Below are positions 1-10,201 of a DNA stretch of 10,201 nt, piece by piece (position 1 is the first letter of the stretch; every line of letters starts with the position of its first letter). The notes beneath the pieces were generated by a model, which saw nothing but the letters and a program-made list of their open reading frames with translations, had not been told where the DNA came from and searched no databases. Source of the stretch: a virus (lineage: Duplodnaviria > Heunggongvirae > Uroviricota > Caudoviricetes). Made by a program: the position numbers and the translations under genes. Where the stretch lies: the IMG/VR virus record IMGVR_UViG_2558860904_000026, positions 1-10,201 of that record; one strand, 5' to 3'.

Positions 1-957
1 ATGTTAAAGATAATACCCGGTGCAACAGGATACTTTAATAAAACACTCAATTCAAATCAATTCGATAATGAAGATGCAATCAAAGGTAAAGTAAATAGTA
101 TATATGGTAAATCTATTGATTATTCAACGATGCGTCATCGGGATATAATTATTGCAAAAATAGATTTATTTATTCAAAGAATCACTCATAATTTATGGAC
201 TGCACGTGAAAAAAATGTGACGTTAATTAAGCAAATAAACGATCTCAAAATGTGTGTCAATGAGTATATTGGAGATTGTACTGATGAGGAATTAAACGAT
301 CGTGAATTTATTGCATCAGTTGTTGACAGGGCTATTTTTCATTTCGCGATTAATAGTATATGTAATCCCGAGGATAATAAAGATGCGACACTCATAGAAC
401 GATGTACTTTTGATGTAGAAACCAAGAATGGTCTTCCCTCCACGGTTCAGCTATTTTATGAGGAATCTAAAGATAATGAACCTTTAGCGAATATACATTT
501 GCAAGCAATAGGTTCTGGTTTCTTAACGTTTGTTAATGCCTGCCAGGAACATGATGACAACAGCTTAAAATTATTTGCTTCGCTGTTAATTTCCCTTTCA
601 TATTCTAGTGTCTACTCAGATTTTGCAGGAAGAGTGAATATTAATGAATATAATGATAACTACCTGAAAGCTCAGTTTGAAGAATTATCTCAACGTGATA
701 TGAAGAAGTACCTGGGAGAGATGAAGCGTCTGGCAGATGGGGGAGAAATGAATTTTGATGGCTATCTGGATAAGATGTCACATCTGGTGAATGAAGGAAC
801 GCTCGCCCCTGATATTTTAAGCAAAATGCGAGATGCTGCACCGAAATTAATTGACTTTGCTAAGTCGTTTGACCCAAACTCAAAGGAAAAGATTAAAATA
901 TATACAGGCACTTCTAAATTAATTTATGATTTATTCGGGGTTAAATCGGAGAAATAA
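1..957 (+). CDS. Hypothetical protein, 318 aa, strongly AT-rich; no family recognised. Sits upstream of the dusA 5' fragment, so probably host flank or an older island.
   Basis: Uninterrupted 957-nt ORF ending TAA, followed by a rho-independent terminator. Composition is visibly AT-rich with Lys/Asn/Asp/Ile-rich codons, unlike the tail genes. Begins with ATG at position 1, so the true start may lie upstream of the window; an internal ATG at 250 would give a 235-aa product. Any correspondence to the K-12 gene upstream of dusA (yjbM-like) is unverified recall. Confidence 0.55.
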
Positions 958-998
958 TATGTGAAGTTCTTCGATGGTATGAAAGGTATTACATAAAA

Positions 999-1027
999 GA
1001 ACCCAATGTTTATTGGGTTCTTTTTTT
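999..1027 (+). terminator. Rho-independent terminator after the 318-aa gene
   Basis: Inverted repeat agaacccaat / attgggttc with a 4-nt loop, followed directly by a T7 run (1021-1027). Confidence 0.7.
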
Positions 1028-1318
1028 CTCTATCAGTGCTATTAGCAGGGAGAGATATCACCGGAGTTTAATGTGTGATTTTTATTTATCGTCGAATCTG
1101 TATTGTTTATCATTGCTTTTCACAACGCTAACATCTAATAAGATTAGATATTCACTTCGTGAGAGCTTCATGCCTTGAGAGGATCTCAATTTTCTTTTGC
1201 AATGAGACAGGCGCTTCCTGTTGTTATGGTATAGTACCCCGTTATTGAGCCTCCTGAACAGTGATGCTGAATAACATAACCACATGATATATCGATAAAA
1301 TAATCTCTACATTTGAAA

Positions 1319-1441
1319 ATGCACGGTAATTCTGAAATGCAAAAAATCAACCAAACCAGCGCAATGCCTGAAAAAACTGACGTTCACTGGAGTGGTCGGT
1401 TTAGCGTTGCACCAATGCTCGATAGGATGTACCGTTTTTGA
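1319..1441 (+). pseudogene. dusA: Orphan 5' fragment of dusA (tRNA-dihydrouridine synthase A): about 35 native N-terminal codons, then unrelated sequence and a stop
   Basis: Translation MHGNSEMQKINQTSAMPEKTDVHWSGRFSVAPMLD matches the E. coli DusA N-terminus as I recall it (native continues WTDRHCRYF). Here the frame continues RMYRF-stop, so homology ends after codon GAT at 1421-1423. Confidence 0.7.
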
Positions 1442-1531
1442 AAAACAAATAGTTATATACTTTGTGGGAGCCTATTGGGAACCCGGCGTTTTCATTTCAA
1501 GGTGTAATCCATACGCGGCTTAAGAATGAGA

Positions 1532-1537
1532 TATAAT
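1532..1537 (+). promoter_or_regulatory. Candidate -10 hexamer (TATAAT) about 30 nt upstream of the GNAT-like gene
   Basis: Perfect TATAAT at 1532-1537; no convincing -35 at 17-bp spacing (ccatac). Weak call. Confidence 0.25.
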
Positions 1538-1566
1538 GCGACTTTTAGTGTTCCGCTTGAGAGGCC

Positions 1567-2103
1567 ATGATGCTTACCCTGGACGAGATAGGTCAATCAG
1601 TACGTAACAATATCCAGTTGATTATTGATCATGTCGGCTTACCTCTTGCTGTTGGTCCGCTCAGTGATGATGATTACAAGATTCTGTGTGGTGGCTATGG
1701 TGAGCTTGAATGGGACTATGCGTTAAGTACCTATGGCAACTCCAGAGAAAAGTATGAGTTCTGCATAAAACTTGTTCAGCAAGGTCGGGTTCAGGGAATA
1801 CCATCAGGAGCAGCAATTTGTGTTTATGGGGTTGAAGAAAACATCTTTCGTATCCATATGATCGAAAGGTTTTCTAGAGAAGATGAATCTCACCCATTGA
1901 AAGGGCGCATGGTTTTACTCACTCTTATGAGTGCTTTTATATTTTGTAAAGCTGTTGAATGTAAAGTTGTCCACATTGTAGAGCCAGTACCAGAACTGGT
2001 GCAGTATTACGAGTCTTTTGGTTTCCGCATGGAACAGTGCGGTTATGTGATGTCGGCAGTCATTGATGAGCTGCAGGATATCTTTCTTAAATTTGCTCAG
2101 TAG
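1567..2103 (+). CDS. GNAT-fold (N-acetyltransferase-like) protein, 178 aa, first gene inside the element after the dusA junction
   Basis: ORF with SD-like GAGAGG (1559-1564); tandem ATGs at 1567 and 1570, and 1570 has the better spacing. C-terminal half has GNAT-like layout: beta strand ICVYGVEENIFRIHMIERF, then HPLKGRMVLLTLMSAF, then YYESFGF resembling the Y-x-x-GF motif. No canonical Q/R-x-x-G-x-G/A acetyl-CoA motif, so the fold assignment is tentative. Confidence 0.6.
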   Translation: MMLTLDEIGQSVRNNIQLIIDHVGLPLAVGPLSDDDYKILCGGYGELEWDYALSTYGNSREKYEFCIKLVQQGRVQGIPSGAAICVYGVEENIFRIHMIERFSREDESHPLKGRMVLLTLMSAFIFCKAVECKVVHIVEPVPELVQYYESFGFRMEQCGYVMSAVIDELQDIFLKFAQ

Positions 2104-2120
2104 GTATAGACGAGAAGGGT

Positions 2121-2133
2121 CTACAAATTGTAG
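2121..2133. promoter_or_regulatory. Short palindrome ctacaa-a-ttgtag immediately after the GNAT-like gene stop
   Basis: 6-bp perfect inverted repeat around a single central base, embedded in a longer imperfect palindrome (gggtctacaaattgtaggataccc). No T-run follows, so not a classic terminator. Confidence 0.25.
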
Positions 2134-2208
2134 GATACCCGTCCAGATTACCTTAAAGGTACATCTATGGCAGTCGTTTTGTGCTTAAACTACTAAGAAA
2201 CGATGTCA

Positions 2209-2229
2209 CCAATCGACATGATCGATTGG
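2209..2229. promoter_or_regulatory. Operator-like inverted repeat ccaatcga-N5-tcgattgg upstream of the 57-aa gene
   Basis: Perfect 8-bp arms with a 5-bp spacer, about 70 bp upstream of the ATG at 2300; overlaps a TTGGCA hexamer. Confidence 0.3.
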
Positions 2230-2299
2230 CATAAGTTAGCGAAACAAGCTAGCTTTAAAGAAAGGGTTAGAGACGCCTTTACTGTCTCGGGAGTTTTCT

Positions 2300-2473
2300 A
2301 TGAAAGATCAAAAAGCAACCAAGCCACAGGTTAAGTTCGACACAATGAAAGCATTCGCAGGTATGGGTGCTGCTGTTGAAGTTCTGATGAAGGCTGCTCC
2401 TAATGCGTTCACTCACGCTACTGTCTCTGGTAAAGAGCAGCAGGGTAAGCTTCGTCGTCGCAAAGCAGCATGA
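2300..2473 (+). CDS. Small hypothetical protein, 57 aa, basic C-terminus (MKDQKATKPQVKFDTMKAFAGMGAAVEVLMKAAPNAFTHATVSGKEQQGKLRRRKAA)
   Basis: Not in the supplied ORF track (below its size cut-off). Found by hand: SD GGGAG at 2289-2293, 6-nt spacer, ATG at 2300, stop TGA at 2471-2473, then a strong terminator. Confidence 0.5.
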   Translation: MKDQKATKPQVKFDTMKAFAGMGAAVEVLMKAAPNAFTHATVSGKEQQGKLRRRKAA

Positions 2474-2492
2474 TCATAGCTGGTGCTTTTTG

Positions 2493-2518
2493 AAAACCCG
2501 CCTTCAGGCGGGTTTTTT
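2493..2518. terminator. Bidirectional rho-independent terminator between the converging 57-aa gene (+) and PrtN-like gene (-)
   Basis: aaaa-cccgcc-ttca-ggcggg-tttttt: GC-rich 6-bp stem with 4-nt loop, A-run on one side and T-run on the other, so it can terminate both strands. Confidence 0.75.
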
Positions 2519-2520
2519 CT

Positions 2521-2802
2521 TTAGTGATGTTCTTTGTCCTTCTGTTTGACTGTTCTGACCTGTTCCCACTCGATACGTCCTTCTTCTCGCCTTTTGTCTA
2601 TGTATTCCGCAAGATCTTGAATATTGATGCAACGTTTTGCTTTTTGTGATGTGCCGATGCGATATGTTGGAACGGGCAACTTACAAGCGTTTGCTTTTGC
2701 TTCTGCCGTGGCTGGACTCATACCAAAGTACTTTTGGCTAACTGCTGAGAGTTCAATGTTTGGGGTATTGAATTCAGCCATCAGTAAAAACAAGGTGTTC
2801 AT
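2521..2802 (-). CDS. PrtN-like small DNA-binding protein (putative phage transcriptional activator or excisionase-like), about 93 aa
   Basis: Minus-strand ORF; the track start at 2829 is GTG. The ATG at 2802 has SD GGAG with a 6-nt spacer and gives MNTLFLLMAEFNTPNIELSAVSQKYFGMSPATAEAKANACKLPVPTYRIG..., which I recognise as the PrtN/pyocin-activator-like family common in enterobacterial prophage early regions. Recall only. Confidence 0.6.
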   Translation of the reverse strand: MNTLFLLMAEFNTPNIELSAVSQKYFGMSPATAEAKANACKLPVPTYRIGTSQKAKRCINIQDLAEYIDKRREEGRIEWEQVRTVKQKDKEHH

Positions 2803-2838
2803 AATTTTCTCCATCAAAACCGGCTGCACCCGGGAAAA

Positions 2839-3213
2839 TCATAATTCTGTGCTGGTGGCAGGAATTAATTTCTGCCAGATAGCGGAAACATATTTTGCCT
2901 GATGACGGGCATCAGCCAGGGCGTTGTGCCGTTCGCCATCGAAAGGCATGTCCATTTTGGGGTCGAATCCGATGGAACGCCCAAGCGTAACGATCGTGCG
3001 TACATCGTGGTCATTCCAGTACGCCCACGGGCAGATTTGTCCTGCTCGCTCGTAAGCTCCACGTAAAATTACGTTGTCGAAGGTGGCCCCGTTACCCCAG
3101 ACTTTTAAATATTTCGTATTGTCTGCGTGCCGGTTAATGAAATGGTTTAGTTCTGAGAGAGCATCGCTGATCGACAAAGTATCATCAATACTTCCAGCGA
3201 TACCAGCGCGACT
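2839..3213 (-). pseudogene. DnaQ-like (DEDDh) 3'-5' exonuclease, C-terminal part only; N-terminus lost or frameshifted
   Basis: Translation ...WGNGATFDNVILRGAYERAG...HNALADARHQAKYVSAIWQKL carries Exo II-like (FDN) and Exo III-like (H-x-A-x-x-DA) motifs. The frame is open upstream only to a stop at 3214-3216, has no ATG and starts at TTG in the track. No Exo I (D-x-E) segment is present in this frame. Confidence 0.6.
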
Positions 3214-3344
3214 TTAAATGCGGTAAGTACGTTTTTAACCACATCGATTTTGAATACTATTTCATCACATACAAACGATTTATCGTCTACTACCGTTTCA
3301 ATTCCGGTAATCGTGTTTTGTAGCCATTTGGTTAATTCAGCCAT
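3147..3344 (-). CDS. 65-aa ORF overlapping the exonuclease fragment in the +1 frame; possibly a displaced or replaced N-terminal segment
   Basis: ATG at 3344, stop at 3147. Overlaps the exonuclease frame by about 65 nt one frame off; a single-nucleotide indel between about 3180 and 3250 would fuse them. No recognisable motif; weak SD. Confidence 0.3.
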   Translation of the reverse strand: MAELTKWLQNTITGIETVVDDKSFVCDEIVFKIDVVKNVLTAFKVALVSLEVLMILCRSAMLSQN

Positions 3345-3352
3345 TTTTCATT

Positions 3353-3369
3353 ACCGCCCTTTCGGGCGG
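3353..3369 (-). promoter_or_regulatory. GC-rich hairpin (accgccc-tttc-gggcggt) in the leader 9 nt upstream of the 65-aa ORF start
   Basis: 7-bp perfect stem with tetraloop; no U-run on either strand, so not a terminator. Possible RNA structure in a 5' UTR. Confidence 0.25.
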
Positions 3370-3490
3370 TCTCCTGATGTTCTGAGGGTGCAGGAATCCC
3401 TCCGGTTAAGGATTAAATTTTATTTACAGAACTGAATTTAATTATTCAGATATACGTATCTGTAACCTTACGAACCTACTCACTGGATGC

Positions 3491-3997
3491 CTATTTCATA
3501 AAAATAATCCAGTGGGTTTTATCGTTTTTTCCTGTTCGTTGACCGATAACAGGTTTTCTGTCGGTCAGTACCAATATCTGGCGAACAGGTATTTGCGTTT
3601 CATTCCATTTAAAAATCAGAACGCCGGATGGACGCAACACACGAAAGGCTTCTTTAAATCCCTGCCGCAAATCATCACGCTAGGTATCTTTATTCAGCCG
3701 TCCATATTTCTTTCCCATCCAGGCGTTATCACCAACACGCTCAAGATGCGGAGGGTCGAATATAACCATCGAAAAAGATGCGTCTGCAAATGGTAGTGCA
3801 CGAAAATCAGCTATCAGATCAGGACTGATAATCAGGCGTCGTCCATCACACAATGTGTGCTCTTCCTTTCTGATATCGCTAAATATCGCCCGGTCGTCAT
3901 TCTTATCGAACCAGAACATGCGACTGCCACAGCACATGTCGAGGATTGCTGCATGTCCAGTCACTGGCTGCCTCCTTTGCGAAGCCGTTCCGCCCAT
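3491..3997 (-). pseudogene. Class I SAM-dependent methyltransferase (about 167 aa) interrupted by an in-frame amber (TAG) codon at 3680-3682
   Basis: N-terminal 105 aa contain motif I-like ILDMCCGS, an acidic loop, and LPFADASFSMVIFDPPH. After the TAG the same frame stays open for 62 more codons (RDDLRQGFKEAFRVLRPSGVLIFKWN...) including an RVL-x-P-G-G-like methyltransferase motif, and ends at a stop at 3491-3493. I translated the downstream segment by hand. Confidence 0.6.
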
Positions 3998-4311
3998 TCT
4001 TCAAGGGATTTCTCTGCATATTCACCGGACAGGCCATCAATCGGATGCGATTCATTAGCTAACTCTTCTTTTGCTGACAGAATCATGCGTGTAACGTCGA
4101 AAACTTCAGCCAAAGGCTTATTGATAAATCCGTGATTGAAAGCAGCAGCAAGACGGCTTGCGGTATAGTTAATACCCTCGTTGCGAGCCTCAGCACGTAC
4201 TTCATCGAATTTACGCACCAGATACTCAGCATTTGTTTCATTCACTTTCAGATCTCGCGGTACACATTTCCCGCGAAGAAACCCTTCCATTTCGAAAACA
4301 TTCATGCGCAT
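3961..4311 (-). CDS. Hypothetical prophage early-region protein, 116 aa
   Basis: ATG at 4311 preceded by SD GGAG with an 8-nt spacer. Its start overlaps the HD gene stop (ATGCGCATGA) and its 3' end overlaps the methyltransferase start by 37 nt, which suggests translational coupling. No motif recognised. Confidence 0.55.
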   Translation of the reverse strand: MRMNVFEMEGFLRGKCVPRDLKVNETNAEYLVRKFDEVRAEARNEGINYTASRLAAAFNHGFINKPLAEVFDVTRMILSAKEELANESHPIDGLSGEYAEKSLEEWAERLRKGGSQ

Positions 4312-4838
4312 TTGTGTAACTCCGATAACTCGTTAAAACGTTCCATAAACATCCCGTAGGCATGGCTAGGTGCCAGTGGAATCACGTTGAACATCTCTGT
4401 TGCCGGGATGCCTTCCAGTACAGGCCAGAAAGAGCCATCATCAAGCCCGAGATCGCGGCGTTCGGTTGCCAGCATGATAAGATCGGCATATTTCACGGGC
4501 GTACTCATAACTGGGGGTAACCCGTATTTCTCACGGATTACGGCGTCAATTTTTTCTTCCATCCGTTTATAGTCAGGAAGAAGGCGTTTCAGTGGAGCGG
4601 GGATGTCCTGGCAATACGCTTCTGTTGCATCATGCATTAATGCTTCAAAAGCAAATTCCTGCGGTACCAGCTGGCTGCAAAGAACCGCATGTTGGGCGAC
4701 GCTGTAGAAGTGCGAAAGATGACCGGCAAAGCGACAGATATTTGAAAGGGAAACCGCGATATCGTTAATATCGATGTCGTCTTTATTTATCCTGTCATAA
4801 TAAAAATGCTTCCCGGAAAAAGTTTTAATAAATGACAT
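4302..4838 (-). CDS. HD-domain phosphohydrolase (YfdR-like 5'-deoxynucleotidase family), 178 aa
   Basis: Translation contains H...HD metal-binding signature (SVAQHAV ... LMHDATEAY) typical of HD hydrolases. The track start at 4865 is GTG; the ATG at 4838 has SD GGAG with a 6-nt spacer and gives 178 aa, the length I recall for E. coli YfdR. Confidence 0.7.
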   Translation of the reverse strand: MSFIKTFSGKHFYYDRINKDDIDINDIAVSLSNICRFAGHLSHFYSVAQHAVLCSQLVPQEFAFEALMHDATEAYCQDIPAPLKRLLPDYKRMEEKIDAVIREKYGLPPVMSTPVKYADLIMLATERRDLGLDDGSFWPVLEGIPATEMFNVIPLAPSHAYGMFMERFNELSELHKCA

Positions 4839-4931
4839 TTTGTTCTCCACGTATATGCGCTGCACCGCGCTGAATTCTGGTAAAAAGAATCCCTCACCAT
4901 CCGGCGATTATTGAGTAAATTACGTTTCCAT

Positions 4932-4953
4932 AAATGCCCCCTCAGGGGCATTT
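4932..4953 (-). terminator. Perfect 9-bp hairpin (aaatgcccc-ctca-ggggcattt) 13 nt downstream of the 128-aa ORF stop; weak terminator or RNA stability element
   Basis: Perfect inverted repeat with 4-nt loop; the only U residues are those within the stem, so intrinsic termination is uncertain. Confidence 0.3.
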
Positions 4954-4965
4954 GCAGTAATGAAA

Positions 4966-5352
4966 TCAGGCGGTGAAAGTACCAATAAAGGTTTCTACTT
5001 TGCTGTCCTTGAATTTCTCAACAAGCAGATCACGAAATTCGTTAGCCATTTCTTCCTGCACCGCCTCCAGCTGAATAATGCGCAGAACCAGTACCGGACG
5101 ATCGCCAGTGATAATGCTGAGGCGTAATTTAAACGGACGTTCTTTCAGACCTTCAAACGGAATGCATTTAAATTCAAATGCCACTGGCATAATGTCTTTG
5201 GTCTTCGCTTCGACAGACTCCATCAGGGAGCGTTTGCCGCTGAAGTCATTATCTTCAAAATCAGCGGTCTGGTTTGCTTCAATCGTGATTTTACGGACCG
5301 CCGCAGCCGCTTTTGTTGCCTGAATGGTGTCACCATTAGCATCAAAGCCCAC
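4966..5352 (-). pseudogene. Hypothetical early-region protein, probably 5'-truncated at the deletion junction with the J fragment
   Basis: Frame is open from 5406 down to the stop at 4966 but has no ATG; the first possible start is GTG at 5352. The upstream end abuts and overlaps sequence that encodes J-like protein on the opposite strand. Confidence 0.45.
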
Positions 5353-6110
5353 AAGGTAGTCGGCCCAGTCTTCAATCCATTCTGGTTGCCGCCAATCGTA
5401 TCGCGTTTATTGACCCGGCAAACGGGAATGAAACGCCGATGTTTGTGGCGCAGGGCAACCAGATATTCATGAACGACGTGTTCCTGAAGCGCCTGACGGC
5501 CCCCACCATTACCAGCGGTGGAAATCCACCGGTATTTTCCCTGACATCAGACGGAAAGCTGACCGCTAAAAATGCGGATATCAGTGGCAGTGTGAATGCG
5601 AACTCCGGGACGCTCAACAACGTCACGGTAAATGAAAACTGTACGATTAAGGGCATGCTGGAGGCGACTCAGGTCAGAGGTGACTTCGTTAAAGCTGTAT
5701 CCAAATCATTTCCGAAACAGGCTGGTACGTGGGGTAACACGGAAACACCAAACGGGACGGTTACAGTCACCATCAGCGATGATCATAACTTTGACCGTCA
5801 AATCATTATTCCGCCCATTATCTTTAACGGAATAGCGTATAGCGATCCGGGAAGTGGTAATAACCCGGGAGGTACAAGATACACGGGTTATGGTTTTGAA
5901 GTTCGCAAAAACGGTGTATTAATCGCATCCAGAGAAACTAAAGGGGCCATTCCCGGTAGCTACAGTGCGGTTATTGATATGCCGAGTGGCAGGGGAAGCG
6001 TCACTCTGGAGTTTAAGGTTTTCCATAAAGGCAATCAGCGGGCAGGTAATATCACCGACTGTACGGTGATTGTGACCAAAAAAGCGGCTTCCGGCATCAG
6101 TATCCGTTGA
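5340..6110 (+). pseudogene. J: C-terminal (receptor-binding) fragment of a lambda J-like central tail fibre / host specificity protein
   Basis: Translation ...[74 protein letters not shown]... matches what I recall of the lambda J C-terminus, and it sits directly upstream of lom-stf-tfa as in lambda. Frame opens only at 5340; lambda J is over 1100 aa, so roughly the first 900 codons are missing. Confidence 0.7.
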
Positions 6111-6132
6111 AATATTTATAACCCTAATAACG

Positions 6133-6156
6133 GGCGCCAGAAATGGCGCCTTTTTT
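6133..6156 (+). terminator. Rho-independent terminator between the J fragment and lom
   Basis: ggcgcca-gaaa-tggcgcc stem with GNRA-type tetraloop, followed by T6 (6151-6156). Confidence 0.75.
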
Positions 6157-6180
6157 ATTGCAGAAAATCGGGAGGTAATT

Positions 6181-6780
6181 ATGCGTAAAGTTTGTGCAGC
6201 AATTTTGTCCGCAGCCATTTGTCTGGCCGTATCCGGTGTGCCTGCATGGGCGTCTGAGCATCAGTCCACGCTGAGCGCAGGATATCTTCATGCCAGTACG
6301 GACGCTCCCGGCAGCGATGATCTGAACGGGATTAACGTGAAATACCGTTATGAGTTTACGGACACACTGGGGCTGATTACGTCCTTCAGTTATGCCAACG
6401 CCGAAGATGAGCAAAAAACGCATTACAGCGATACCCGCTGGCATGAGGATTACGTGCGTAACCGCTGGTTCAGCGTGATGGCAGGGCCGTCTGTGCGTGT
6501 GAATGAATGGTTCAGTGCGTATGCGATGGCGGGTGTGGCTTACAGCCGTGTGTCGACTTTTTCCGGGGATTATTTCCGCGTAACTGACAACAAGAGGAAA
6601 ACGCACGACGTGCTGACCGGAAGTGATGACGCTCGCTACAGCAACACATCTCTGGCGTGGGGGGCTGGCGTGCAGTTTAACCCGACCGAATCAGTGGCCG
6701 TTGATGTCGCTTATGAAGGCTCCGGCAGCGGTGACTGGCGCACTGACGGTTTCATCGTGGGTGTCGGTTATAAATTTTGA
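6181..6780 (+). CDS. lom: Lom-family outer-membrane beta-barrel protein (Ail/Lom/OmpX family), 199 aa
   Basis: SD GGAGG (6171-6175), ATG at 6181. N-terminal signal peptide MRKVCAAILSAAICLAVSGVPAWA. C-terminus ...VDVAYEGSGSGDWRTDGFIVGVGYKF matches the lambda Lom C-terminus as recalled. Canonical position between J and stf. Confidence 0.9.
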   Translation: MRKVCAAILSAAICLAVSGVPAWASEHQSTLSAGYLHASTDAPGSDDLNGINVKYRYEFTDTLGLITSFSYANAEDEQKTHYSDTRWHEDYVRNRWFSVMAGPSVRVNEWFSAYAMAGVAYSRVSTFSGDYFRVTDNKRKTHDVLTGSDDARYSNTSLAWGAGVQFNPTESVAVDVAYEGSGSGDWRTDGFIVGVGYKF

Positions 6781-6801
6781 TTAGTAACACAGCGTTATGA
6801 C

Positions 6802-6829
6802 AGCCCGCCGGTTCAGGCGGGCTTTTTTG
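6802..6829 (+). terminator. Rho-independent terminator after lom
   Basis: agcccgcc-ggttca-ggcgggct stem-loop followed by T6 (6824-6829). Confidence 0.75.
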
Positions 6830-6839
6830 TGGAGTGGGT

Positions 6840-9758
6840 ATGGCAGCAGTACAAATATCAGGCGTGCTGAAAGATGGTGCGGGAAAACCAATACAGAACT
6901 GCACCATTCAACTGAAAGCCAGACGTAACAGCACCACGGTGGTGGTGAACACGGTGGCCTCTGAAAATCCGGATGAGGCAGGGCGTTACAGCATGGACGT
7001 CGAGTATGGTCAGTACAGCGTCATTCTGTTGGTGGAAGGGTTCCCGCCGTCACATGCCGGGACCATCACCGTGTATGAAGATTCTCAACCCGGTACGCTG
7101 AATGATTTTCTTGGTGCCATGACTGAGGATGATGTCCGTCCGGAGGCACTGCGCCGTTTTGAGCTGATGGTGGAAGAGGTGGCGCGTAACGCGTCCGCGG
7201 TGGCACAGAACACGGCAGCCGCGAAGAAGTCAGCCAGCGATGCCAGCACATCAGCCCGTGAGGCGGCAACCCATGCGACTGATGCTGCGGACTCAGCACG
7301 CGCAGCCAGCACGTCAGCCGGACAGGCCGCGTCGTCGGCTCAGTCAGCGTCTTCCAGCGCAGGAACGGCATCAACAAAGGCTACTGAAGCATCAAAAAGT
7401 GCTGCCGCTGCAGAGTCCTCAAAAAGCGCGGCGGCTACCAGTGCCGGTGCGGCGAAAACGTCAGAAACGAATGCGGCAGTGTCACAACAATCAGCCGCCA
7501 CTTCTGCATCCACCGCGACCACGAAAGCGTCAGAAGCTGCCTCCTCAGCCAGGGATGCGTCGGCTTCAAAAGAGGCGGCAAAATCATCAGAAACGAGCGC
7601 AGCCTCGAGCGCCAGTAGTGCAGCCTCCTCGGCAACGGCGGCAGGCAATTCCGCGAAGGCGGCCAAAACGTCTGAGACAAACGCTAAGTCCTCTGAAACG
7701 GCAGCAGAACAGAGTGCCTCCGCAGCAGCAGGCTCAAAAACAGCGGCTGCATTATCTGCCAGTGCCGCGTCAACAAGTGCCGGGCAGGCCTCAGCCAGTG
7801 CCACCGCCGCCGGAAAATCGGCAGAAAGTGCCGCATCGTCTGCTTCAACAGCCACAACGAAGGCTGGCGAAGCCACTGAACAGGCCAGCGCAGCAGCGAG
7901 TTCTGCTTCCGCAGCGAAGACATCCGAAACGAACGCGAAAGCGTCGGAAACCAGCGCAGAATCCTCAAAAACGGCTGCCGCATCGTCAGCCAGTTCGGCG
8001 GCGTCATCGGCATCATCTGCGTCTGCTTCAAAAGATGAGGCGACCAGACAAGCGTCAGCAGCGAAGAGCAGCGCCACGACGGCATCCACGAAGGCGACAG
8101 AGGCAGCTGGTAGTGCGACGGCAGCAGCTCAGAGCAAAAGTACGGCGGAATCTGCAGCAACGCGCGCTGAGACAGCGGCAAAACGGGCAGAGGATATTGC
8201 ATCCGCCGTGGCGCTTGAGGATGCGAGCACGACGAAAAAGGGGATAGTACAGCTCAGCAGTGCGACTAACAGCACTTCCGAGTCACTGGCGGCAACGCCA
8301 AAAGCCGTTAAGGCCGCGTATGAGCTGGCTAACGGGAAATACACCGCACAGGATGCAACGACAGCACAGAAAGGGATAGTTCAGCTTAGCAACGCGACCA
8401 ACAGCACATCTGAAATGCTGGCGGCAACGCCAAAGTCGGTAAAGGCAGCCTATGACCTTGCTAACGGGAAATATACTGCTCAGGACGCTACGACAGCACA
8501 AAAAGGAATTGTCCAGCTCAGTAGTGCAACCAACAGCGCATCTGAAACGCTTGCCGCGACACCGAAAGCAGTGAAAGCAGCTAATGATAATGCGAATGGT
8601 CGGGTACCTTCTGCCCGTAAGGTGAATGGTAAGGCGCTTTCATCGGATATAACACTGACGCCGAAAGATATTGGTACGCTTAACTCAACAACAATGTCAT
8701 TCAGCGGTGGTGCTGGTTGGTTCAAATTAGCAACGGTAACCATGCCACAGGCGAGTTCTGTTGTTTCAATTACGTTGATTGGTGGCGCGGGATTTAACGT
8801 GGGGTCACCTCAACAGGCAGGTATATCTGAACTTGTTTTGCGTGCAGGTAATGGTAATCCGAAGGGGATTACTGGTGCTTTATGGCAGCGCACATCGACA
8901 GGGTTTACAAATTTTGCCTGGGTCAATACATCTGGTGATACTTACGATATTTACGTTGCAATCGGAAATTATGCGACTGGTGTAAATATTCAATGGGATT
9001 ATACCAGTAATGCCAGCGTGACGATTCATACGTCACCAGCATATTCTGCTAATAAGCCGGAAGGGTTAACGGACGGTACAGTTTATTCACTCTATACGCC
9101 ATCAGAGCAGTTTTATCCGCCTGGCGCACCAATCCCGTGGCCATCAGATACCGTTCCGTCTGGCTATGCCCTGATGCAGGGGCAGACTTTTGACAAATCT
9201 GCATACCCGAAACTTGCAGCCGCTTATCCGTCAGGCGTGATCCCTGATATGCGTGGCTGGACGATTAAGGGCAAACCTGCCAGTGGTCGGGCCGTATTGT
9301 CTCAGGAACAGGACGGCATTAAATCGCACACCCACAGCGCCAGCGCATCCAGTACGGATTTGGGGACGAAAACCACATCGTCGTTTGATTACGGCACTAA
9401 ATCCACGAATAACACCGGGGCGCACACGCACAGTGTGAGCGGTACAGCCGCAAGTGCCGGAAACCATACTCATAGTGTCACAGGCGCATCAGCAGTCAGC
9501 CAGTGGTCACAAAATGGGTCAGTACATAAGGTAGTGTCTGCGGCCAGTGTGAATACAAGTGCTGCAGGAGCGCACACTCATAGTGTCAGCGGCACAGCTG
9601 CATCTGCAGGTGCTCACGCACATACTGTCGGTATTGGTGCTCATACGCACTCTGTTGCGATTGGCTCACATGGACACACCATCACCGTTAACGCTGCGGG
9701 TAACGCGGAAAACACTGTCAAAAACATCGCATTTAACTACATTGTGAGGCTTGCATAA
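6840..9758 (+). CDS. stf: Side tail fibre protein Stf, 972 aa, with lambda-like N-terminus, long Ala/Ser/Thr-rich low-complexity region, three tandem 44-aa repeats and His-rich C-terminal tip
   Basis: ATG at 6840 with SD GGAG (6831-6834); the track start at 6834 is GTG with no spacer. N-terminus [39 protein letters not shown]... matches the lambda Stf N-terminus as recalled. C-terminal repeats [15 protein letters not shown] with H-x-H motifs are typical of phage fibre tips. Stop TAA at 9756-9758. Confidence 0.9.
8236..8631 (+). repeat. Three tandem 132-bp (44-codon) repeats inside stf
   Basis: Units begin at about 8241, 8373 and 8505 (gggatagtac / gggatagttc / ggaattgtcc). They encode [45 protein letters not shown] and two variants; the third copy diverges at its end. 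Confidence 0.8.
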
Positions 9759-10201
9759 TGGCATTCAGAATGAGTGAACAACCACGGACCATAAAAATTT
9801 ATAATCTGCTGACCGGAACTAATGAATTTATTGGTGAAGGTGACGCATATATTCCGCCTCATACAGGTCTGCCAGCAAACAGTACCTATATTGCACCGCC
9901 AGATATTCCGGCTGGCTTCGTGGCTGTTTTCAACAGTGATGAGTCATCGTGGCATCTCGTTGAAGATCATCGGGGTAAAACGGTTTATGACGTGGCTTCC
10001 GGCGACGCGTTATTTATTTCTGAACTCGGCTCATTACCGGAAAATGTTACCTGGTTATCGCCGGAAGGGGAGTTTCAGAAGTGGAACGGCACAGCCTGGG
10101 TGAAAGATGCAGAAGCAGAAAAACTGTTCCGGATCCGGGAGGCGGAAGAAACAAAAAACAGCCTGATGCAGGTAGCCAGTGAGCATATTGCGCCACTTCA
10201 G
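9758..10201 (+). CDS. tfa: Tail fibre assembly chaperone Tfa, N-terminal 148 codons; gene runs off the window end
   Basis: ATG at 9758-9760 overlaps the stf stop (TAATG); SD GAGG at 9746-9749. Translation [78 protein letters not shown]... matches lambda Tfa as recalled. No stop within the window, so it is absent from the ORF track. Confidence 0.9.

Follow-up and report, generated by a model that had tools for sequence, protein, structure and literature searches.

The window analysed here, a stretch of 10,201 nucleotides of viral DNA, raises the question of why it holds the beginning of a bacterial gene, dusA, cut off from the remainder. The fragment lies in an orphan ORF of 40 codons on the + strand (1319-1441), whose translation is MHGNSEMQKINQTSAMPEKTDVHWSGRFSVAPMLDRMYRF followed by a stop. 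A reading made from the sequence alone had taken this ORF to contain the first ~35 codons of DusA together with their upstream region, and the point at which it leaves DusA to be the edge of an integrated element. Sequence comparison establishes the identities of attB, attP, attL and attR, the integrase and uninterrupted dusA of genomes identical to window 1-5515, and a deletion within the element. On the best reading, 1319-1441 is almost certainly the attL of a dusA-specific lambdoid prophage remnant, which imported a new 5' end for the gene and later suffered a central deletion.

The first step is to establish what the fragment is. Bases 1-104 of the native dusA coding sequence, comprising 34 complete codons and the first two bases of the 35th, occupy 1319-1422 (+ strand) and are severed from the gene body. 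In E. coli K-12 DH1, in which dusA is unoccupied, 104 of the 104 bases are identical, and the 119 bases located 5' of position 1319 contain three mismatches (116/119 identical). The match to DusA is therefore a real feature and no chance ORF, and window 1200-1422 covers the promoter region of native dusA as well as coding bases 1-104. The N terminus of DH1 DusA (MHGNSEMQKINQTSAMPEKTDVHWSGRFSVAPMLDWTDRHC) has the same 35 residues and then continues with WTDRHC, whereas in the window host residues 1-35 are joined to a phage-derived RMYRF-stop, so that the frame reads APMLDRMYRF-stop. Both the presence of the DusA codons with their upstream region and the divergence past codon 35 had thus been read correctly. 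In genomes identical here, the RefSeq annotation of this segment is ‘tRNA-dihydrouridine synthase, incomplete, missing C-terminus’ (a partial pseudogene).

The DNA to the left of the fragment is of host origin. A host DUF2713 gene of the yjbL/yjbM region (1-957, + strand; Pfam PF10897, E=1.4e-143) is the native left neighbour of dusA, in unoccupied DH1 and occupied genomes alike. This gene is an intact ORF of 318 codons in the window and in O157, and is annotated by RefSeq as frameshifted in K-12 DH1, FAM21845, and 88_1577. In unoccupied DH1, yjbM, dusA, and pspG follow each other without interruption, and the comparison with an unoccupied strain, which had been suggested as a check, shows homology ending at window 1422.

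The position of the break was determined by megablast of window 900-2200 (a query of 1,301 bases) against 5,426 complete E. coli genomes, of which 4,372 matched. In the genomes with an unoccupied dusA (~4,000), the alignment stops at query base 523, and the last shared base is accordingly window 1422. The boundary had first been placed at 1423/1424; the junction itself holds, and its position moves by one base, because codon 35 is GAT in the window and GAC natively, both encoding Asp. In 335 complete genomes at least 80% of the query is matched, so the attL junction of the window and its first cargo gene are present there. Viewed on its own, the window is a truncated ORF beside foreign DNA, and this is also what would be left by an unrelated disruption of dusA (a random insertion, a deletion, or an IS) that involved no site-specific integration. 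No transposase or IS is present at the dusA junction, and the decision between the two explanations comes from the far end of the element and from free phages.

The far end can be examined in close relatives. O157:H7 strains EC4115 and 2017C-4109 match window 1-5515 with 100% identity, and in EC4115 the junction of the window opens a lambdoid phage remnant of 10,855 bp that is closed by a tyrosine integrase and an intact dusA. The element in O157:H7 is flanked by a perfect direct repeat of 27 bp, TCGGTTTAGCGTTGCACCAATGCTCGA, whose attL copy is located at 1396-1422 and is the one copy in the window. The second copy, which had been anticipated from the sequence, recurs 10,855 bp to the right in both EC4115 and 2017C-4109 and sits within an intact dusA of 345 aa with a full Dus domain (PF01207). 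The partial dusA CDS of EC4115 ends at 5179273 in RefSeq. In both genomes the integrase (WP_000332269.1; 365 aa, PF00589 E=1e-20) is encoded upstream of dusA, at a distance of 88 bp and divergently on the other strand, and in complete O157 genomes a DinI gene flanks this integrase-dusA end. An integrase and an intact dusA to the right of the window had been predicted, and both are found in these complete genomes. The int-dusA' junction occurs in 740 of the 5,426 complete E. coli genomes. In the canonical O157 remnant of complete genomes, the interval from the tail-fibre genes to DinI/int also contains three DUF1076 (NleG-type effector) genes (27621-29618 of the 2017C-4109 locus, L001), which are absent from the window.

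The two dusA 5' ends of an occupied genome are of different origin. The intact dusA at attR starts with MHDNHEAQKINQTSVMPEKTGVYWNSRFSVAPMLD and differs from the native 5' end at 16 of 104 nt and 8 of 35 aa; from the copy carried by phage mEp460 it differs less (11/104 nt). The region upstream of the attR dusA is unrelated to the native upstream region. Given this diverged start and unrelated upstream DNA, it is the native 5' end that lies orphaned in the window, and the intact gene has acquired its 5' end from elsewhere. The opposite polarity, in which the window fragment would be the element's copy and the intact gene would keep its native start, is suggested at a casual look by the similarity of the two 5' ends (88/104 nt shared), which makes them easy to confuse. 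However, the window copy is the one that matches K-12 (0/104 and 3/119 mismatches) and lies beside native yjbM, while the int-proximal copy matches mEp460 and SKA5 and is preceded by unrelated DNA that overlaps the start of int. The K-12 and mEp460 comparisons refute the reversed arrangement, whose probability we regard as negligible.

Free phages supply the remaining half of the comparison. In mEp460 (NC_019716), the gene order is tail fibre, DinI, integrase, a dusA-like ORF of 40 codons ending in APMLDRMYRF-stop, an arm, gp23 (corresponding to the window ORF 1567-2103), gp24, a PrtN-family excisionase, exonuclease, yfdR, and yfdQ. The attP sites of mEp460, mEp460_4F5, and SKA5, all free phages, encode the identical APMLDRMYRF-stop tail, and the mEp460 arm is identical to window 1423-1566 at 144 of 144 bases. 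On these identities, the int-dusA'-core-arm stretch of mEp460 can be read as the attP that matches the attL of the window, and the RMYRF-stop of the orphan ORF as phage sequence that pre-existed in free mEp460. An unrelated disruption would have to break the gene exactly at an att core common to free-phage attP, to acquire a tail that already exists in phage without leaving an IS or transposase at the junction, and to coincide with a second core, an integrase, and a reconstituted dusA in identical genomes. The four-way att comparison refutes it in effect, and we consider it extremely improbable. Site-specific integration thus remains the preferred explanation. The claim that an element entered the 5' end of dusA and brought a replacement agrees with EC4115 and 2017C-4109, which carry int and an intact dusA with a phage-type 5' end. 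In sum, the original observation is confirmed and its interpretation is supported: a reader of the sequence alone correctly recognised a dusA-type attL.

The att sites also allow the crossover to be located. Four attP (mEp460, mEp460_4F5, SKA5, and Lys8385Vzw), one attB, two attL (the window and FAM21845), and four attR were compared. The four attP read ...TCGGTTTAGCATTGCTCC(T/C)ATGCT(C/T)GA up to the switch point and TAGGATG beyond it (in shorter form, GCATTGCTCC(T/C)ATGCT(C/T)GA and TAGG). The attB, contained in the string ...CCAATGCTCGACTGG, reads ...TCGGTTTAGCGTTGCACCAATGCTCGA and then CTGGACG (in shorter form, GCGTTGCACCAATGCTCGA and CTGG). Both attL have host-type bases through ATGCTCGA and phage sequence beyond, and three attR (O111:H8, SOI121, and N39) read GCATTGCTCCTATGCT(C/T)GA and then CTGG, being phage-type up to ATGCT(C/T)GA and host-type thereafter. 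The only stretch adjoining the switch point that is common to attB and three of the four attP is ATGCTCGA; mEp460_4F5 has ATGCTTGA instead. As attL is host-type through ATGCTCGA and the three attR are phage-type up to the core, strand exchange most likely took place inside this 8-bp sequence (window 1415-1422), which the attB and attP comparison marks as the likeliest overlap (crossover) region of attL; the exact positions of exchange we infer. In the attP of Lys8385Vzw (~680-700 of locus L009), the presumed overlap is found as a tandem duplicate, ATGCTCGAATGCTCGA.

The attR of O157 departs from this pattern. At 31352-31378 of the 2017C-4109 locus (L001), it has host-type G, A, and A at three upstream positions where the three other lysogens keep phage-type A, T, and T. 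The perfect 27-bp repeat is for this reason particular to the O157 lineage, and the att sites of the other lysogens share 8 bp with imperfect flanks. A single crossover in ATGCTCGA with an attP of the mEp460 type would not alone yield the O157 attR, which would need either an ancestral attP variant or a later gene conversion.

On the phage side of the junction, 1423-1566 constitutes the P' arm of attL. Its first part, 1423-1483, is conserved across different dusA phages, with homology reaching ~1483 in FAM21845, SKA5, and Lys8385Vzw. The motif TGGGA(A/G)CC occurs twice in the window, against an expectation of 0.39, and both occurrences lie in the arm (TGGGAGCC at 1465-1472 and TGGGAACC at 1476-1483). 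A related doublet and an inverted copy of the motif are found in the int-side arm of mEp460. These two sequences are candidate arm-type sites at which the integrase may bind.

Beyond the arm, the window continues with the genes of an mEp460-like phage in various states of decay. A cargo ORF of 178 aa (1567-2103, + strand; mEp460 gp23, phrog_4350) is followed by a small phage ORF of 57 aa (2300-2473, + strand; mEp460 gp24, phrog_2741). The PrtN-family excisionase gene (2521-2829, - strand) is supported by Pfam PF11112 (E=4e-23) and phrog_1300 ‘excisionase’ (E=8e-40), and its counterpart in mEp460, gp25, is annotated as excisionase; RefSeq calls a shorter form, 2521-2802. The 3'-5' exonuclease gene (2839-3177, - strand) lacks its N terminus, matches only positions 79-177 of the PF16473 profile, and is a RefSeq pseudogene; it is full length in 88_1577 and mEp460. 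A DNA methyltransferase pseudogene with an internal stop (3491-3997, - strand) is intact in 88_1577. A yfdR-like 5'-deoxynucleotidase, a phage early gene (4302-4838, - strand), is followed by a fragment of yfdQ (DUF2303; 4966-5352, - strand) that retains the C-terminal 128 aa (PF10065 profile positions 148-269 of 269) and is likewise a RefSeq pseudogene. An Rfam scan of the window gave no family at the gathering score.

The yfdQ fragment ends at an internal deletion. Blastn against mEp460 and against the NleB2/NleC prophage of O157 places the end of yfdQ homology at 5384 and the start of gpJ homology at 5380, an overlap of 5 bp (5380-5384) at which the last 128 codons of yfdQ abut the last 731 bases of gpJ. 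The deletion took the whole centre of the mEp460-like phage, including regulatory, replication, lysis, head, and most tail genes. With yfdQ' abutting gpJ' and pseudogenes in place of exo and the methyltransferase, the complete lambdoid gene set is missing and the dusA element, judged by its gene content, is a remnant and not a functional phage. Full-length related prophages occupy the dusA site in FAM21845 and 88_1577. Still intact are the integrase (annotated in complete O157 genomes), the excisionase gene 2521-2829 (in O157 and the window), and both att sites, and free phages carry the matching attP; excision of the remnant may be possible. A search of Asadulghani 2009 for a Sakai Sp/SpLE name for the dusA remnant found none.

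The right part of the window presents a different problem. The window agrees with the dusA remnant as far as 5515, and an exact repeat of 136 bp (5380-5515), shared with gpJ of another O157 prophage, marks the place where it departs from the canonical form. Over 5380 to 7192, its identity with the J-lom-tail-fibre module of the NleB2/NleC prophage is 99.1%; in the same complete genomes this prophage is located ~4 Mb from the dusA remnant, and the exact 5380-5515 repeat is present in both. The genes of this part are a C-terminal fragment of gpJ (5439-6110), lom (6181-6780), a tail fibre of 972 aa (6840-9758, with its ATG start at 6840), and a tail-fibre assembly gene truncated where the contig stops (9758-10201), all on the + strand and with Pfam hits. 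Identity is 100% both for window 5440-6180, compared with gpJ at another place in O157, and for window 6169-10201, compared with one contig of another draft assembly. The genes in 5439-10201 are all prophage genes, of a type that complete O157 genomes carry at other prophage loci. The claim that everything to the right of the junction is mobile DNA therefore stands insofar as all of it is prophage DNA; that all of it belongs to this one element is less certain, as from 5380-5515 on the sequence follows the module of another O157 prophage.

Two explanations can account for this switch: from 5516 on, the sequence reflects a chimeric draft contig or else true recombination between prophages in the strain. 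In the latter case, the junction at dusA is genuine and the 5380-5515 repeat has mediated recombination between the dusA remnant and a different lambdoid prophage (by inversion, translocation, or gene conversion), so that the integrase and dusA would not lie directly downstream. The change to the J-lom-tail-fibre module of another prophage inside an exact 136-bp repeat is what such an event would produce, and the combination is seen in none of the 5,426 complete genomes: none has the J-lom-tail-fibre module at dusA, and no complete E. coli genome covering at least 80% of the window was found. The window is, however, 100% identical to contig AVQX01000121.1 of a draft assembly (GCA_000477495.2), and this contig stops one base past the window, inside the multi-copy tail-fibre assembly gene. 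The contig of the second draft assembly breaks at window 6169, in the same module. Such breaks are typical of short-read assembly through repeats, and a chimeric contig is at least as likely; we regard recombination in the strain as unlikely. Since the contig ends with the window, without an integrase or a second att site, the right junction is shown only in relatives. The attL reading is unaffected by whether the contig is chimeric or recombined, and users of this sequence should be aware that its right 4.7 kb may derive from a chimeric draft contig.

The position next to the attL arm merits separate consideration. Between the phage arm and the excisionase lies a slot whose cargo differs among relatives. 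In the window it is the 178-aa phrog_4350 protein (1567-2103, + strand), in FAM21845 a Panacea-domain pair (20663-21711 of locus L005), in PhiR40_1 a YafM/YafO-annotated pair (222-1212 of locus L016), and in 1720a-02 another ORF (2091-2639 of locus L017). The 178-aa protein had no match in Pfam, NCBIfam, PADLOC, or PDB sequences, and Foldseek of its poor single-sequence AlphaFold model (pLDDT 52) against the PDB returned nothing below E=0.1. All four cargo types point away from the att core and are co-oriented with the dusA promoter.

A candidate for the native dusA promoter is an extended -10-like motif, TGGTATAGT, read at 1227-1235 (+ strand), and a similar motif, TGTTATAGT, is found at the equivalent place 5' of the phage-borne dusA copy. 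In mEp460 (4380-4401 of locus L006) and at the 2017C-4109 locus (31165-31186 of L001), the phage-borne TGTTATAGT overlaps the first integrase codons on the opposite strand. TGGTATAGT was not called in a consensus promoter scan, which demands a -35 hexamer. The scan for promoter and terminator consensus gave no more sites than shuffled sequence and none in 1024-1920 on the + strand; the RNA fold of 1400-1580 was no more stable than shuffles, and no terminator was predicted within 1441-1566. As the cargo is co-oriented and this interval has no predicted terminator, lysogen cargo may be expressed from the orphaned host promoter. Integration could then amount to an exchange of promoters, in which the phage-borne one drives host dusA and the orphaned host one reads into the cargo slot, an idea that we hold tentatively and consider somewhat doubtful. 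If it is true, lysogen cargo expression would be tied to a housekeeping promoter, one that comes with a leader ORF of 40 codons.

These results combine into a sequence of events that we hold to be almost certain. A temperate phage similar to mEp460 carries its attP between the integrase gene and a cargo gene, and within this attP the phage's own copy of the dusA 5' region, consisting of upstream DNA and 35 codons, precedes RMYRF-stop. The tyrosine integrase joined attP to attB at a point ~100 bp inside the host gene, most likely in ATGCTCGA (1415-1422). At attR, the phage-borne 5' end was fused to the dusA body beside int, and the gene stayed intact; at attL, the host promoter and the first 35 codons were stranded at the far end and fused to phage DNA. 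A later central deletion (5380-5384) and the decay of several early genes left the 10.9-kb remnant in O157:H7.

Among known systems, viable lambdoid phage mEp460 is one of the closest to the element. The two share the attP structure and the P' arm (144/144), and their genes run in one order from gp23/gp24 through the PrtN-type excisionase and the exonuclease to yfdR and yfdQ, with ~98% identity over window 1316-3191 and ~96% over 4203-5384. In contrast to the complete mEp460 (44.5 kb), the window element lacks the span from yfdQ to the end of gpJ, and its exo and methyltransferase genes are decayed. The Stx2d phage 1720a-02, inserted in dusA of Citrobacter rodentium, has experimentally verified attL and attR sites 100 bp into the gene; its ‘phi-dusA'’ restores the reading frame, its 7-base core lies inside a 21-bp motif, and its int adjoins dusA (Balasubramanian et al. 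2019, PMC6328086). The 1720a-02 arm aligns to the window from 1415, and the 7-base core agrees with ATGCTCGA. Unlike the window element, 1720a-02 is a full Stx-converting phage, resides in another host species, and carries other cargo at the att arm.

Integrases of this kind were defined as dusA-associated integrases (DAI) by Farrugia et al. 2015 (NAR 43:4547, PMC4482086). In that study, the dusA 5' end of occupied strains was described as island-derived, with the original 5' end being rejoined on excision, and the elements were flanked by semi-conserved attL/attR repeats of 21 bp. Like DAI elements, the window element is inserted ~100 bp into dusA, the break falling after CDS base 104 (window 1422), and leaves a native 5' remnant at the int-distal junction (window 1200-1422, then phage DNA). 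In genomes identical to window 1-5515, an element-supplied 5' end keeps dusA intact; a divergent tyrosine integrase adjoins this replacement 5' end in 2017C-4109 and EC4115, the latter listed by Farrugia et al., and semi-conserved direct repeats flank the element, here as the perfect 27-bp repeat of O157. Nothing essential differs from DAI elements, except that the window copy enters another tail module at 5516 and its contig ends before attR. Table S1 of the same study lists E. coli O157:H7 EC4115 (NC_011353.1, 5179273..5190127, 10,855 bp) as ‘Phage remnant’, and this is the same element as window 1423-5515. The match of the RefSeq CDS end at 5179273 and of the 10,855-bp spacing with this entry means that the published element and mechanism were correctly recognised; the mechanism, in which DAI integrases act and the 5' end is replaced, has been in print since 2015, as has this O157:H7 element. 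For annotation, the left boundary of the prophage remnant is now fixed at 1422/1423 and the ‘partial tRNA-dihydrouridine synthase’ pseudogene is explained. To the published description, the present comparison adds a crossover mapped to 8 bp and candidate arm sites.
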